Below, in pieces: positions 6,120 through 30,948 of a DNA stretch of 64,000 nt. The stretch lies in assembly GCA_017999675.1 (NCBI GenBank), contig JAGNLL010000001.1:120415-184414 (forward strand). The letters run 5' to 3'. Source of the DNA: Rickettsiales bacterium (GTDB lineage: Bacteria > Pseudomonadota > Alphaproteobacteria > Rickettsiales > UBA1997). Positions within the stretch are counted from its first letter, which is position 1; each line of letters starts with the position of its first letter. The notes under the pieces were generated by a model. The model saw only the letters and a list, made by a program, of their open reading frames with translations, had not been told where the DNA came from and made no database searches. A program made the position numbers and the translations under genes.

Positions 6120-6223
6120 AAAAACCGTCGGTTGAGCGGAGTCGAAACCAGCGGAAGGTTCCTGCTTCAATATCTAAGCAGGAACCTTCCGCTGGTTTCG
6201 ACTCCGCTCAACCGACGGTTTTT
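6120..6223. repeat. Perfect long palindrome (48-nt arms, 8-nt loop) between convergent ribD and the glycosyltransferase
   Basis: Arm 6120-6167 is the exact reverse complement of 6176-6223. Loop is caatatct. The element is GC-rich relative to its flanks. Confidence 0.9.
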
Positions 6224-15835: not shown

Positions 15836-15934
15836 TCTGGATTGCCGCGCTGCGCTCGCAATGACGGAGGTTGGAGGAAGGACGGAGAACTTCCTCCAAC
15901 CTCCGTCATTGCGAGCGCAGCGCGGCAATCCAGA
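15836..15934. repeat. Perfect long palindrome (45-nt arms, 9-nt loop) between purN and def
   Basis: tctggattgccgcgctgcgctcgcaatgacggaggttggaggaag / gacggagaa / exact reverse complement. GC-rich. Confidence 0.9.
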
Positions 15935-25833: not shown

Positions 25834-26658
25834 TTATCTAAATTTCTCATCCAGATTACACCCCTCTTCATCACGCCAATCTGTCCATCCATTAGAATTC
25901 CTTCCCAAGCAAAATGTTGATGCCGATGAAGGGCTTTTGAAGGGAATATTTTTTTCCACCAAAAAATATTCCCCCACATCTTTGCAAAATTCGCGAAAGA
26001 AAAAATCACGATCAGATGATCCATATTTACGATAGGAAGAAACAGCTTCTTTGCATATTTTTGAGCCCGCCAGAACCGTAAATCCATTTTCATCGTAAAA
26101 TCCTTTGGAATCAGTGCCTTTGCTGTTCCTACAATAAAAAAGATGCTTTGTTTTTTCCTCAATCACCTCAAAAAGTTTATAACCAAGAAATGATGTCAAA
26201 AGCTTTACATCTTCAAAAAATTCATGGACGGAATCCCTTTGATGCTCCTGTAAATTTGGTGATTTTGGACTTTGTTTGTTTTCTTCAAGTTTAAATCTAT
26301 CAGCTTTTTTGATTTGGTTAATTGCCAAATATTCTAAATATTGAACATCGGCTTTAGTGAGGTAATTATCCTTTGCACTGAAAGCTATAGCCTCATTCCA
26401 AAACTCTTTTTTTGAATCGTGATCTTTAACACGATCAATAAAACTTTCCGTCTCTCCAACATAGGCTTTACCCTCCTCGCCAACCAGTAAGTAAAGAGAT
26501 GGTCGTTTCAACTCTTCTCTACCCCTCGCTTCATTTAACTTAGCCCTAGGCACAAAAAGTGCGTTGCAAACTTTGTTAGAAATAAAAACAGATCTTAGCC
26601 CAGTTGAACTGCCTTCAATCAAGTAGGTTGTGATTGTCTTGCCCATATTTAGATTCAT
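25834..26658 (-). CDS. GIY-YIG nuclease-family protein with a DUF4357-like C-terminal domain
   Basis: Start taken at the ATG at 26656-26658 (MNLNMGKTITTYLIEG). SLYLLVGEEGKAYVGETESF...RVKDH...FWNEAIAF fits GIY-YIG. The longer track ORF (to 26775) crosses a hairpin repeat and overlaps argG. Confidence 0.78.
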   Translation of the reverse strand: MNLNMGKTITTYLIEGSSTGLRSVFISNKVCNALFVPRAKLNEARGREELKRPSLYLLVGEEGKAYVGETESFIDRVKDHDSKKEFWNEAIAFSAKDNYLTKADVQYLEYLAINQIKKADRFKLEENKQSPKSPNLQEHQRDSVHEFFEDVKLLTSFLGYKLFEVIEEKTKHLFYCRNSKGTDSKGFYDENGFTVLAGSKICKEAVSSYRKYGSSDRDFFFREFCKDVGEYFLVEKNIPFKSPSSASTFCLGRNSNGWTDWRDEEGCNLDEKFR

Positions 26659-26669
26659 TGTTTTTAACA

Positions 26670-26710
26670 CCAGCCGCAGGACGGGATTGCAAATCCCGTC
26701 CTGCGGCTGG
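26670..26710. repeat. Extended hairpin-A repeat (19-bp perfect stem, 3-nt loop) downstream of argG
   Basis: ccagccgcaggacgggatt gca aatcccgtcctgcggctgg shares the aggacgggatt..aatcccgtcct core with the 53.5-kb and 54.6-kb repeats. No U-run follows. Confidence 0.6.
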
Positions 26711-26731
26711 GGGTGGCCTTGTGGCTGGAAA

Positions 26732-27997
26732 TTACTTTTTGCTTTTGGTGCTGGTTTTGGCGTTGGCTCTGGCACCGATTCTTAGGCGGAGGGCGTTTAG
26801 TTTGATGAAGCCTGCTGCGTCTTTTTGGTCGTAGACGGCGTCTTCTTCGAAGGTTACGTGGGCTTCAGAGTACAAGCTTTTTACAGATTTTCTTGAGACT
26901 ACTGTCGCGCTGCCTTTGTAGAGTTTTAGGGTTACACTTCCTTCAACATTTTCTTGAGATTTGTCGATCAAGGCTTGCAGCATTTCGCGTTCAGGAGAGA
27001 ACCAGAAACCGTTGTAAATTAAGCTCGCATATTTCGGCATTAGCTCGTCTTTCAAATGCGCGGCTTCGCGATCTAACGTGATTGACTCAATGGCGCGGTG
27101 GGCGACTAACAAAATTGTTCCACCTGGGGTTTCGTAAACGCCTCTCGATTTCATTCCAACGAAACGGTTTTCAACAAGATCCAATCTGCCAATTCCGTTT
27201 TTGCCGCCAAGCTCGTTTAGCTTAGTCAAGATTTGCGCCGGTGACATTTTTTTGCCGTTAATCGCAATTGGGTCACCTTTTTTAAATTCGATGTCAATCA
27301 ACGTAGCCTTATCTGGCGCAGCTTCAGGGCTTACTGTTCTTTGGTAAACATATTCCGGCGCCGCTTTTGACGGATCTTCCAAAACTTTTCCCTCGCTCGA
27401 AGTGTGCAACAAATTCGCATCAACCGAGTAAGGCGATTCACCGCGTTTGTCTTTGGCCACAGGAATGCCGTGCTTGTCGGCGTAAGCAATCAACTTAGTG
27501 CGCGAGTTTAAATCCCACTCTCTCCACGGTGCGATAATTTTGATGTCTGGCTTGTTAGCGTAGTAAGCAAGTTCAAAACGAACTTGGTCATTTCCTTTGC
27601 CAGTAGCGCCGTGGCACACGGCGTCAGCTCCCAATTTTTTCGCAATTTCAATTTGTTTTTTCGCAATCAACGGACGCGCAATTGAGGTGCCAAGCAAGTA
27701 AACACCTTCGTACAAAGTATTCGCACGAAACATTGGAAACACGTAATCACGCACAAATTCTTCGCGCAGATCTTCAATAAAAATTTGCTTCACACCCATT
27801 TTTTTGGCCTTCGCGCGAGCCGGTTCAAGCTCTTCGCCCTGCCCTAAATCTGCCGTGAAAGTTATCACTTCGCAGCCGTAATTTTCTTGCAGCCATTTTA
27901 AAATTACTGAGGTGTCAAGACCACCCGAATAAGCCAAAACAACTTTTTTAATTTTGCTTTTTGCAGCCTCTGGTTTTTTTGTTTTCGGAGTTTTCAT
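26732..27997 (-). CDS. argG: Argininosuccinate synthase
   Basis: Start taken at the ATG at 27995-27997. Carries AYSGGLDTS and the other ArgG motifs. Confidence 0.97.
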
Positions 27998-28102: not shown

Positions 28103-28537
28103 ATGCAAATAAAAGAGCTGCAAACCCGCGAAGAAATTTCTGCAAGCTTTGAAGTTTTGGTGCAAATTTACGAAGATTTAAACCGCGAAACCTACGTTGA
28201 AGACATCCTCAACATGATGCAACGCGGCTACAAAATGGCTGGCGTTTTTCAAGACCAAACTGTTGAAAACGGCCGCTGCGTTGGCGTTGTAGGCATTCGC
28301 GTAATCAGAAAATTACATTACGGCAAAGCCGTTGAAATTGAAGACTTCATGATCGACCGCGCCAAGCGTGGCATTGGTGTAGGCAAAATGTTAATGCGCT
28401 GGGTTGACTGGCAAGCCGCAAATTTTGGCTGCCAAAATATTGTCGGAAATCTCGAAACCAAAAGACTTGAATCGCAAAGAATTTTCTCACGTGAAAAGTT
28501 TAATTTAGACGGATTTTTCTTTAGGAAGAGTTTGTAA
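28103..28537 (+). CDS. GNAT-family N-acetyltransferase
   Basis: About 144 aa from the ATG at 28103. The acetyl-CoA motif region is DRAKRGIGVGKMLM. Confidence 0.75.
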   Translation: MQIKELQTREEISASFEVLVQIYEDLNRETYVEDILNMMQRGYKMAGVFQDQTVENGRCVGVVGIRVIRKLHYGKAVEIEDFMIDRAKRGIGVGKMLMRWVDWQAANFGCQNIVGNLETKRLESQRIFSREKFNLDGFFFRKSL

Positions 28538-28545
28538 GCTCTAAC

Positions 28546-28647
28546 TAGGTCCCCGAGCAAAGCACGCAGTGCGTCGTCGAGGGGTCCGAAGCGAGATTGG
28601 TCTTCGGGCCCCTCGACGACGCACTGCGTGCTTTGCTCGGGGACCTA
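28546..28647. repeat. Long palindrome (46-nt arms with one T:G position, 10-nt loop) between the GNAT gene and yihY
   Basis: taggtccccgagcaaagcacgcagtgcgtcgtcgaggggtccgaag / cgagattggt / reverse complement. Starts 9 nt after the GNAT stop. Confidence 0.9.
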
Positions 28648-28684
28648 TAAAATTCTCAAAAACTATTTCTTCTCCTGAAAAAAA

Positions 28685-29566
28685 ATGCCCCAACAAAAAC
28701 GCTCAAATCTTGAGTATAATTTCCACAAATACTGCATCCTACCTTTCAAAATCTTACGCCTTTCAATCGTCGACACCGTTAGGCAAGACGGCGTTGAGCA
28801 TGCCGGTTATTTGGCCTTTTTAAGCTTACTTTCGCTTTTTCCTTTTTTGATTTTTCTCATTTCAATAATCGGCTTTTTTGGCGCTTCTGAAATTGGCGCA
28901 AAATTTGTGCACACCATTTTAGCCTCCGCCCCAAAAGAAGTTGCCGACGCACTAAACCCGCGTATTGAAGAAATTATCTCAGGACCCCCACAAAGCTTTT
29001 TAACCCTCGCAATTTTTGGTGTAATTTGGACTGCGTCTTCATCGGTTGAAGGTTGCCGCACCATTTTAAATCGCGCCTACCGCGTGGCATTTCCACCGCC
29101 CTACTTGCTGCGCCGCTTCATCAGCATTTTAGAATTTTTTGTAATTATTTTTGCCGTGCTAATTGGAATTGTAGTTTTTGTGGTGGTACCAAGTTTTTTT
29201 GCAGAAATTGGCGGCAAGTTTTACTTCGATTTTAACTTTTTTTACCTGCGTTATTTGGCAATTTTTTTGCTACTTACCTGCACCACTTCGCTGCTTTATT
29301 TTGCTTTACCAAATGCCAAACAGCACATCACCCAAACCGTTCCCGGATCAATACTGGCAGTAGCTTTGTGGTTTTTTGTCGAAAATTTATTTTCTTTTTA
29401 CTTAAGCAATTTTCACCAGTTCAATTTGGTTTACGGATCGCTCGCCGGCATGATGATTTCGCTGATGTTTTTTTATTTAATCAGCCTGATTTTTATTTTA
29501 GGTGCCGAGTTCAACTATCATTTTCACCGTACATACAAAGTATTCTTGCGAGATAGCCACAGATGA
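28685..29566 (+). CDS. YihY/BrkB-family inner-membrane protein
   Basis: 293 aa with about 6 TM segments. GYLAFLSLLSLFPFLIFLISIIG is typical of the family. Confidence 0.85.
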   Translation: MPQQKRSNLEYNFHKYCILPFKILRLSIVDTVRQDGVEHAGYLAFLSLLSLFPFLIFLISIIGFFGASEIGAKFVHTILASAPKEVADALNPRIEEIISGPPQSFLTLAIFGVIWTASSSVEGCRTILNRAYRVAFPPPYLLRRFISILEFFVIIFAVLIGIVVFVVVPSFFAEIGGKFYFDFNFFYLRYLAIFLLLTCTTSLLYFALPNAKQHITQTVPGSILAVALWFFVENLFSFYLSNFHQFNLVYGSLAGMMISLMFFYLISLIFILGAEFNYHFHRTYKVFLRDSHR

Positions 29567-30948
29567 AATTTCCATTTTGGCCCGACCAAAAAGGCTACCG
29601 CGACATCGATTTGGGTTTGTCGCGCGTTTATCAATTGCTTGAAAGACTCGACAATCCGCACTTAAAACTTCCTCCCACAATTCACCTTGCAGGCACGAAC
29701 GGCAAGGGTTCAACTCTATCTTTTTTACGCAGCATTTTTGCAGAATCTGGCCTTTCAGTTCACACTTACACCTCGCCACATTTAGTAAATTTTAACGAAA
29801 GAATCACACTCGCAGGCGCTGAAATTTCTGACGATTTTTTAAATAAAGTTTTACGCGATTGCAAAAACGCCGCCGAAATTTCGCCAAAAATTGAGGTCAC
29901 TTATTTTGAAGGAATCACGGTTGCGGCATTTTTAGCATTTAGCCAAGTGAAGGCCGACGTGCTTTTGCTTGAGGTTGGAATGGGCGGCAGGCTTGATGCC
30001 ACCAATGTTTTGCCAAAAGTTTTGTGTTCAATAATCACGCCAATTGCTTTTGATCACACCGATTTTTTGGGCAACACTCTGGCAAAAATCGCTTTTGAAA
30101 AAGGCGGAATTATTAAAAAAAATTGTCCGACTTTGATTGGAAAACAAAAAGCTTCAGCGCTTAAAACCCTTGAAAATCAGGCTTGTACGGTGAACTCAGC
30201 ATTCAAAGTTTTTGACCGCGATTGGAAAATTAAAAAAGAAAAAAACGGATTTTTATTTGAAGGTTTTGGCAAAAAAATGTCGCTGCCATTACCTTCACTT
30301 TTGGGAGATCATCAACTTGAAAATGCCTCACTGGCAATTGCTGCGGCACTTTTGCAAAAGCAGTTTTTAATCAGCGAAAATCAGATAAAATCGGCCTTAC
30401 AAAAAACTTTTTGGGCAGCGCGTTTGCAAAAAATTGAGTCAGGAAAATTTGCAAAAATGCTACCAAAAAGCTGCAAACTTTACCTTGACGGCAGCCACAA
30501 TTTGCAAGGCGCTGCAACAATTTTGAGGTTTTTGAAAATTGAGAAATCCCGCAAAAAAGAGATCCTGAAACAAGTTCAGGATGACGACTCTCTAAACCGT
30601 CATCCTGAACTTGTTTCAGGATCTTTTGTGAAGCCTAAAAACAAAAAAATCTTCGTTATTTTTTCAATGCTCGAAGACAAAGATTGTGGCGGTTTTTTGA
30701 AAAAAATTGCGGCAGAAGTTGATCATTTATTTGCGCTAGCCATTCCAAACGAAACCAAGTCGCGCAAGGCCTTAGACATTAAACAAATTGCCGAGAAAAA
30801 CGGATTAAAAACAACAGCGGTAGAAAATTTTGACGAGGCTTTTGCAAAAATTTTGTCGCTTAGAAAAGCTGACGAGGAAGCTTTAATTTTAGTGTGTGGC
30901 TCACTTTATTTGGCGGGAAGTTTTCTTGCAGAAAACGCAACTATCTGA
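29563..30948 (+). CDS. folC: Folylpolyglutamate synthase / dihydrofolate synthase, carrying an in-frame palindromic insert
   Basis: 461 aa with the HLAGTNGKGS P-loop, LEVGMGGRLDATN, DGSHN and SMLEDKD motifs. ATGA overlap with yihY. Confidence 0.93.
   Translation: MKFPFWPDQKGYRDIDLGLSRVYQLLERLDNPHLKLPPTIHLAGTNGKGSTLSFLRSIFAESGLSVHTYTSPHLVNFNERITLAGAEISDDFLNKVLRDCKNAAEISPKIEVTYFEGITVAAFLAFSQVKADVLLLEVGMGGRLDATNVLPKVLCSIITPIAFDHTDFLGNTLAKIAFEKGGIIKKNCPTLIGKQKASALKTLENQACTVNSAFKVFDRDWKIKKEKNGFLFEGFGKKMSLPLPSLLGDHQLENASLAIAAALLQKQFLISENQIKSALQKTFWAARLQKIESGKFAKMLPKSCKLYLDGSHNLQGAATILRFLKIEKSRKKEILKQVQDDDSLNRHPELVSGSFVKPKNKKIFVIFSMLEDKDCGGFLKKIAAEVDHLFALAIPNETKSRKALDIKQIAEKNGLKTTAVENFDEAFAKILSLRKADEEALILVCGSLYLAGSFLAENATI
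30561..30623. repeat. 63-nt palindrome (26-nt perfect arms, 11-nt loop) inside the folC reading frame
   Basis: gatcctgaaacaagttcaggatgacg / actctctaaac / cgtcatcctgaacttgtttcaggatc is translated in frame as ILKQVQDDDSLNRHPELVSGS. Confidence 0.9.

Follow-up and report, generated by a model that had tools for sequence, protein, structure and literature searches.

Rickettsia palindromic elements (RPEs), reportedly described by Ogata et al. in 2000 (Science 290:347) and 2002 (Genome Res 12:808), are palindromes that have entered housekeeping genes in frame where the protein fold allows it. A second kind of short palindrome, the repetitive extragenic palindromic (REP) sequence tagged with GTAG, together with its doublet form, the REPIN, is said to be mobilized by RAYT transposases in work attributed to Bertels and Rainey (2011, PLoS Genet 7:e1002132) and Nunvar et al. 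(2010). Here, we analyzed a palindrome that lies in frame inside folC, the gene for folylpolyglutamate/dihydrofolate synthase, in a 64,000-nt stretch of DNA from a Rickettsiales bacterium (contig JAGNLL010000001.1, positions 120,415 to 184,414; hereafter, the window). The classic RPE-1 is longer, at about 100 to 150 bp, and encodes a different peptide. The folC element is very probably an inverted homodimer of CGTC-tagged REP units with inward-facing tags (TT) and the geometry of family CGTC-2, that is, a nonautonomous REPIN/RPE-like repeat inserted in folC.

The closest described system is the CGTC-tagged REPs surveyed by Di Nocera, De Gregorio, and Rocco (2013, BMC Genomics 14:522; PMC3733652). 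According to that survey, each unit carries an unpaired CGTC tag, often in the form TGTC (a CCTC variant also occurs), a stem of 8 to 9 bp that nearly always begins with AT, a loop of 4 to 5 nt, and a 3-nt tail that is mostly CCA; an 8-bp stem with a 5-nt loop defines family CGTC-2. The repeats occur mostly in Alphaproteobacteria, including Wolbachia and Rickettsia, and are without a dedicated transposase. Inverted dimers, termed HH when the tags lie outside and TT when they lie inside, are frequent, intragenic units also occur, and TT dimers are rare and have variable spacers. In several phyla, intragenic dimers code for 20 to 30 amino acids and are enriched in replication and repair genes. 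The same authors assigned RPE-6 of Rickettsia conorii to CGTC-1 and RPE-4 to CGTC-4, noted RNA-level roles proposed for REPs, and left open which activity mobilizes CGTC repeats and whether further copies are being formed today (PMC3733652).

The palindrome in the window spans positions 30561 to 30623 (63 nt) and consists of perfect 26-nt arms (GATCCTGAAACAAGTTCAGGATGACG and CGTCATCCTGAACTTGTTTCAGGATC) on either side of an 11-nt spacer, as the initial annotation of this DNA had described it. A repeat finder placed longer arms, of 30 nt and 97% complementary, at 30557 to 30586 and 30598 to 30627. The 25-mer arm, with a chance expectation of 0.00 in the window, was present there solely as these two arms when up to 3 mismatches were allowed. 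The predicted RNA fold of the palindrome region was very stable (−52.6 kcal/mol, z = −10.8; 0 of 200 shuffles as stable), and the complete 93-nt insert, delimited below, folded as DNA at −33.6 kcal/mol (z = −12.2).

Both arms form small hairpins of their own, composed of CGTC, ATCCTGAA, the 5-nt loop CTTGT, TTCAGGAT, and a short tail. The left unit (30559 to 30586, minus strand) contains its CGTC tag at 30583 to 30586, the stem ATCCTGAA/TTCAGGAT at 30562 to 30569 and 30575 to 30582, a 5-nt loop at 30570 to 30574, and the tail CTC at 30559 to 30561. The right unit (30598 to 30625, plus strand) is built from a CGTC tag (30598 to 30601), two stem halves (30602 to 30609 and 30615 to 30622) around the loop CTTGT (30610 to 30614), and the tail CTT (30623 to 30625). 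Between the inward-facing tags lies the spacer ACTCTCTAAAC (11 nt; 30587 to 30597, plus strand). The resulting order, GACG-spacer-CGTC, is that of a TT homodimer, in which its tags are able to base-pair. The folC element resembles published CGTC-2 REPs (PMC3733652) in its tag, its 8-bp stem beginning with AT, its 5-nt loop, and its short tail, as well as in forming an inverted dimer able to fold into one long hairpin. A further link to an assigned CGTC-2 unit comes from the encoded peptide: the right unit encodes RHPELVSGS, and the CGTC-2 unit within Sulfurovum SUN_0512, a ferredoxin-like open reading frame (ORF), encodes RHSELVSGS (PMC3733652, supplementary table). A blastn search of plasmids detected a related unit in a Sulfurovum mangrovi plasmid (88.6% identity), inside a gene for a 4Fe-4S protein, and related units in several sphingomonad plasmids (92 to 97% identity) and in Treponema. 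An Rfam search of the window at gathering level assigned no family to the folC palindrome and returned solely tRNA and DUF3800-IX RNA elsewhere, and a permissive search of 30400 to 30800 gave just spurious microRNA-type hairpin matches far under threshold. A literature search by the DNA arm or the encoded peptides found no match, and a protein search with an artificial tandem query of the encoded peptide yielded only 11 weak, short matches.

The host of the palindrome is an intact ORF of 461 amino acids (29563 to 30948, plus strand). Its product contains the Mur_ligase_M and Mur_ligase_C domains, matches solved FolC/FPGS (folylpolyglutamate synthase) structures with a best E value of 5.6e-52, and is identical to an NCBI protein annotated as [quoted passage not shown] (MAG, metagenome-assembled genome). 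The palindrome is translated within this ORF as ...EILKQVQDDDSLNRHPELVSGSF..., and the claim that it sits in frame inside FolC was borne out. DNA alignment with empty orthologous sites at two related loci (L002 and L003), combined with codon-level comparison, delimited the insert to 30544 to 30636 (plus strand; 93 nt, 31 codons, residues 328 to 358, KSRKKEILKQVQDDDSLNRHPELVSGSFVKP), with an ambiguity of at most 3 A on either side. The initial annotation had estimated about 36 codons; the KNKK that follows the insert is native. Outside the REP dimer, the insert includes a left flank (30544 to 30558, plus strand; AAATCCCGCAAAAAA), which pairs imperfectly with the right flank (30626 to 30636, plus strand; TTGTGAAGCCT) and bears a weak likeness to the GYGAATA outer stem of other copies.

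The insert occupies a connection that is short in other FolC proteins, as the initial annotation had noted with E. coli as its example: between the helix that starts after the DGSHN motif (residues 309 to 313) and the strand IFVIFS (362 to 367), Thermotoga maritima FolC has 5 residues, compared with 35 here. An AlphaFold2 model of the window protein built with 83 homologues was confident overall (mean predicted local distance difference test [pLDDT] score of 90.4; predicted template modeling [pTM] score of 0.88). The sole internal stretch with a pLDDT below 50 was residues 332 to 358, within the insert, in line with the possibility, raised in the initial annotation, of a surface loop. In an alignment of FolC homologues, the window protein retained every family-invariant column. 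The model and the retained columns suggest that the insert is surface exposed, translated, and harmless and that FolC presumably stays active with it; nothing points to a new FolC function. Predicted tryptic peptides that cross the insert junctions include EILKQVQDDDSLNR and HPELVSGSFVKPK.

A scan that covered a single genome for each GTDB species and required the two exact arms to lie 4 to 30 nt apart gave 99 stretches holding about 109 distinct copies. These came from a few related MAGs labeled Alphaproteobacteria or Rickettsiales (MEMO01, CANGQE01, CAIZZE01, JAZKII01, CANKYC01, and JAGWYT01), in agreement with the alphaproteobacterial bias of CGTC-2 REPs (PMC3733652), and the same FolC-loop arms were present in independent assemblies from ENA, JGI, and NCBI. 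A CGTC or TGTC tag was found in 101 of the 109 copies. Spacers were mostly 24 to 28 nt (counted outside the 25-nt arms) and of several sequence types, so the 11-nt spacer in the window is short. Flanks usually prolonged the palindrome by a few bases (GYGAATA/TATTCRC), and tails, CTT and CTC in the window, read CTA in most of the other copies but CCA in L001. In the 694 kb fetched, units occurred as 129 TT dimers, 19 singles, 2 HH dimers, and 1 HT dimer, a count biased by the choice of loci through a TT search. Multicopy status is established for the related MAGs; in the window's own genome, the 64 kb covered holds one copy of this pair. In MEMO01 (L006, L015, L028, L033, and others), the dimer forms the core of a palindromic element of about 145 nt with many near-identical copies, conserved outer arms (GGTTGTTATCAAAAATATTGTGTCTC.. 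and ..GGACACAAAATTTTAAGAACAA), and conservation over about 35 nt at its ends (GGTTGTTATCAAAAATATTGTGTC...).

Eleven of the 109 copies lay in frame within long ORFs, as the initial annotation had anticipated in calling for a search for further in-frame copies. By our own reading of the translations, the host proteins are PriA, DnaG, UvrC, an AddA/UvrD-like helicase, CcmF, TrmB, acetyl-CoA synthetase (Acs), an acyl-CoA synthetase, a nuclease-like protein, and FolC (twice). The insert in folC resembles RPE insertions: it adds 31 codons, leaves the ORF intact, coincides with the low-pLDDT segment, and is accompanied by ten further in-frame copies in housekeeping genes. All 11 in-frame copies read as (Q/K/E)ILKQVQDD...(R/C)HPELVSGS; in the window, the left unit is translated as EILKQVQDD. 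This uniform reading is explained by frame constraints. The left unit is open in one of its three frames, whereas the right unit has two open frames, HPELVSGS and VILNLFQD, and a spacer length of 1 mod 3 selects the hydrophilic HPELVSGS reading. All 11 intragenic copies had such a spacer, compared with 35 of the 98 others (Fisher p = 3.5e-5).

The bias of the in-frame hosts toward replication and repair agrees with the 2013 survey, as do the in-frame dimers of 20 to 30 amino acids and the lack of an associated transposase (PMC3733652). In R. conorii, CGTC-1 units interrupt uvrC (RC0864, amino acids 438 to 446), ccmF (RC1080), and the tRNA-G-N7-methyltransferase gene (RC1314) (PMC3733652), and UvrC (L085, element at about amino acid 434), CcmF (L023), and TrmB (L073) are interrupted here as well; the two UvrC positions are close in unaligned residue numbering. 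Because the survey places RPE-6 in CGTC-1 and RPE-4 in CGTC-4, the folC element is a relative of some RPEs at the level of the superfamily. The initial annotation had proposed an event analogous to RPE insertion, with a different repeat and in another lineage. It was right that the element is RPE-like and belongs to a different family: as CGTC-2, it has another stem and loop sequence, lies in a non-Rickettsia host, and is set apart from RPE-6 and RPE-4 by the published family assignment. It is more than an analogue, however, and the host MAG is itself labeled Rickettsiales by NCBI. REPINs offer a second comparison. Like them, the folC element is a nonautonomous doublet in which two short tagged hairpins, in inverted orientation, make up one long hairpin, in a family with copy numbers in the range of tens to hundreds. 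Unlike them, it carries CGTC rather than GTAG, and about 10% of CGTC-2 dimer copies are intragenic, whereas REPINs are extragenic. The kind of element is already known, as intragenic CGTC-tagged REP dimers; new are the host clade, the host gene folC, and the unusual TT-dominated family. The hosts are uncultured Rickettsiales-like MAGs outside the survey, FolC is absent from its list of interrupted genes, and the family differs from the published CGTC-tagged REPs in its dominant TT arrangement and its tails (mostly CTA/CTT versus CCA).

The exact 25-mer GATCCTGAAACAAGTTCAGGATGAC was also present in 22 IMG/VR viral contigs (L103 to L124) with G+C fractions of 0.28 to 0.71, mostly singly and often beside other (C/T)GTC-tagged hairpins. 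A selfish repeat would not usually be conserved to this degree among genomes so unlike one another. The sharing suggests either horizontal spread, possibly via phages, or recognition by something widely conserved.

Several observations weigh against the reading of the folC element as an inserted CGTC-2 TT dimer. The unit pair occurs once in the 64-kb window and not at all in 42 kb of its two closest relatives. The window tails, CTT and CTC, depart from the published CCA consensus, and the TT arrangement is the one described as rare for CGTC repeats (PMC3733652). No regular target-site duplication was detected when about 100 copies, and the filled and empty folC sites, were compared. Nor was a mobilizing enzyme found by tblastn in 1.0 Mb comprising the window and the fetched loci or among neighbors in the 22 viral loci. 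The tblastn search, a weak test with approximate IS200-like and RayT-like queries, gave nothing below E = 0.6, and no neighboring protein family occurred in more than 4 of the viral loci. In REPINs, the RAYT gene is flanked by repeats; no Y1/RAYT gene was found near the present copies in the same weak test.

[quoted passage not shown] Precedents include QMITE1/2 of Coxiella burnetii, MITEs that bear terminal inverted repeats and are related to insertion sequences (Wachter et al. 2018, PMC5896051; review, PMC10969869). These and other intragenic MITEs resemble the folC element in being small palindromic repeats able to fuse in frame with host ORFs. The roughly 35-nt conserved ends (GGTTGTTATCAAAAATATTGTGTC...) on the MEMO01 element of about 145 nt, within which the dimer lies, are what a MITE would show, and AAA stands on both sides of the window insert. 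The AAA is uninformative in an A-rich tract, however, and no consistent direct repeat surrounds the roughly 100 copies. Copies differ in their palindromic extension (0 to 10 nt) and show no defined terminal inverted repeat, and no transposase lies beside any copy, as judged by the weak tblastn test and the viral-locus neighbors. What is conserved, here and in REPs, is a tagged hairpin and not a terminal repeat. We therefore consider a MITE origin unlikely.

A role for the hairpin as a cis-acting RNA or DNA signal in folC (a partial intrinsic terminator, RNase target, translational pause, or gyrase site), for which the insert would have been kept, appears improbable as well. Such a role would fit the very stable structure, the RNA-level functions proposed for REPs (PMC3733652), and the 100% identity of the arms between the window and L001, genomes whose folC DNA is 73.6% identical. 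Each unit followed by a T-run also fits a simple terminator pattern on both strands. Yet only 2 terminator-like matches were found where 2.7 were expected from shuffles, and we rejected the terminator reading because the pattern matches are not above shuffles. Moreover, the distribution is patchy, with the closest relatives lacking the insert, and the insert has been deleted in a sister lineage (L127, below). Arm conservation is family-wide, extending even to viral contigs of 28 to 71% GC, and is not specific to folC.

The history of the FolC loop was reconstructed from the 120 best FolC matches (55 to 82% identity). Only 3 of the 120 carried ..LKQVQDD...PELVSGS.. (P0001, which is the window protein, P0006, and P0062). 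The remaining 117, including the nearest relatives at 81 to 82% identity, were without the segment, so that the ortholog alignment called for in the initial annotation supported an insertion. At the DNA level, L002 and L003 provided clean empty sites, in which ...ACTCAA is followed directly by AAAAACAAAAAG... The window, L001, L002, and L003 share the gene order argG, acetyltransferase gene, brkB-like gene, folC, small ORF, and nuoC/B/A; in the window, the brkB-like gene lies upstream of folC, and nuoC/B/A lie downstream on the minus strand. In a neighbor-joining tree of the 120 proteins with insert columns removed, the three carriers fell into three separate clades, each with an insert-less sister (P0001 with P0002, 82.5% identity; P0006 with P0017, 92.8%; P0062 with P0072 to P0078, about 87%). 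Recent transfer of a folC segment between lineages was ruled out, since the flanks are as diverged as the whole gene.

Other members of the superfamily have entered the same loop. L128 (P0072) and L129 (P0099) contain different CGTC-tagged units, arranged as HH heterodimers, two codons downstream, after KN, and P0083, P0079, and P0104 contain peptides similar to these inserts in the FolC loop. CGTC-like inserts were also found at other FolC positions in P0044 and P0060. Loss was documented once. In L127 (379 to 1686; encodes P0017), folC is 91.4% identical to that of L001 at the DNA level, is 84 nt shorter at the insertion site, and retains TTCAGAATCT, a 10-nt remnant of the right REP stem. 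This site is an in-frame deletion scar of the palindrome, and it shows that losses occur, here leaving a trace. In P0062 (492 amino acids), the spacer is expanded to encode about 50 residues of QDDG/RDDG-like repeats; the unit's stem-plus-tag end seems to have been amplified in tandem.

These data bear on whether the three carriers share one ancient insertion that was cleanly lost many times elsewhere. The window and L001 are somewhat alike outside the arms too (left, AAATC..CCGC.A.A.A; right, AAKCCT), and the L127 scar shows that the palindrome can be deleted. Part of the flank likeness, however, comes from GCGA(A)TA, the outer stem of the family itself, and the coding DNA next to the insert is no closer between the window and L001 than the rest of folC. 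The spacers of the three carriers are wholly different (11 nt in the window, 25 nt, and about 190 nt in P0062). The carriers are few and scattered over three clades, with insert-less sisters at 82 to 93% identity. In the sisters of the window copy, the site reads Q-KNKK, the family consensus, and bears no remnant, whereas the documented loss left a scar. We regard one shared ancient insertion as quite improbable: with many scar-free losses, it is much less likely than independent insertions. The simplest reading is that several independent insertions occurred into one A-rich, structurally tolerant FolC loop; this dimer would have entered it independently on at least 3 occasions, and other CGTC dimers on several more. 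A native lineage-specific loop or an assembly artifact with incidental palindromy, which the single copy in the window might suggest, is refuted by the empty orthologous sites, the roughly 109 copies in independent assemblies, the carrier phylogeny, and the failure of all 200 shuffles to fold as well, and has next to no chance of being correct.

Under the preferred reading, that of a CGTC-2 TT dimer inserted in folC, the element would have entered the gene with about 28 nt of its own sequence flanking the dimer. Entry would have been at the A-rich codons between Q and KNKK, in the loop between the IFVIFSM strand and the helix after DGSHN, which is the first of the C-terminal domain. Such an insert would survive because it adds exactly 31 codons, places the left unit in its sole stop-free frame (ILKQVQDD), and has a spacer that keeps the right unit in the HPELVSGS frame. 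The outcome would be a 31-residue hydrophilic excursion on a tolerant surface loop, with the invariant residues kept. Repeated hits on this loop may reflect an A-rich target together with selection that tolerates insertions only there.

The element, a dimer of tagged REP-type hairpins, has repeatedly entered folC and other genes and can be deleted. By analogy with GTAG REP/REPIN-RAYT systems, the most plausible mobilizer would be a trans-acting enzyme that recognizes a single-stranded hairpin, a proposal we make tentatively. It is doubtful that CGTC-2 TT dimers are still mobile, with nonrandom targets, in this uncultured Rickettsiales-like clade. If they were, the clade would be a tractable system in which to find the missing CGTC-repeat mobilizing activity, with phages as candidate vehicles. 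Assignment to the CGTC-tagged REPs ties the window element to a defined superfamily, so that it is no longer an anonymous palindrome. It also extends protein-coding palindromes from cultured Rickettsia to environmental Rickettsiales-like MAGs and adds FolC to the essential enzymes that tolerate them. The FolC loop offers a natural experiment in which different superfamily members have entered one site time after time and for which empty sites and a scar are available, and its record bears on the survey's questions of what mobilizes CGTC repeats and whether copies continue to arise (PMC3733652).

Palindromic repeats, from several families, are unusually abundant in the window. An intergenic perfect palindrome with 45-nt arms (15836 to 15934) has within its arms CGTC-tagged units of another type (..GGATTGCCGCGCTGCGCTCGCAATGACGG/CCGTCATTGCGAGCG..), with tags inward; it is open in some frames (LDCRAALAMTE) and lies outside long ORFs. 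Another long palindromic family (AATAACCACCCCNACCCCTCCTT..AAGGAGGGG) is represented by three copies outside long ORFs (38403 to 38547, 56232 to 56378, and 59063 to 59192), and a similar motif adjoins the CGTC-2 25-mer in viral contig L103. Further palindromes include a long one with 48-nt perfect arms (6120 to 6223) and one with 69-nt arms at 84% complementarity (28523 to 28670), which lies between the acetyltransferase and brkB-like genes just upstream of folC. A GC-rich palindrome with 19-nt perfect arms (26670 to 26710) lies inside a 315-amino-acid minus-strand ORF (25837 to 26781), 23 codons from its upstream end. The DUF3800-IX RNA (RF02968) detected by Rfam is located at 49110 to 49179 on the minus strand (64.2 bits versus a gathering threshold of 36.8; E = 1.1e-11).

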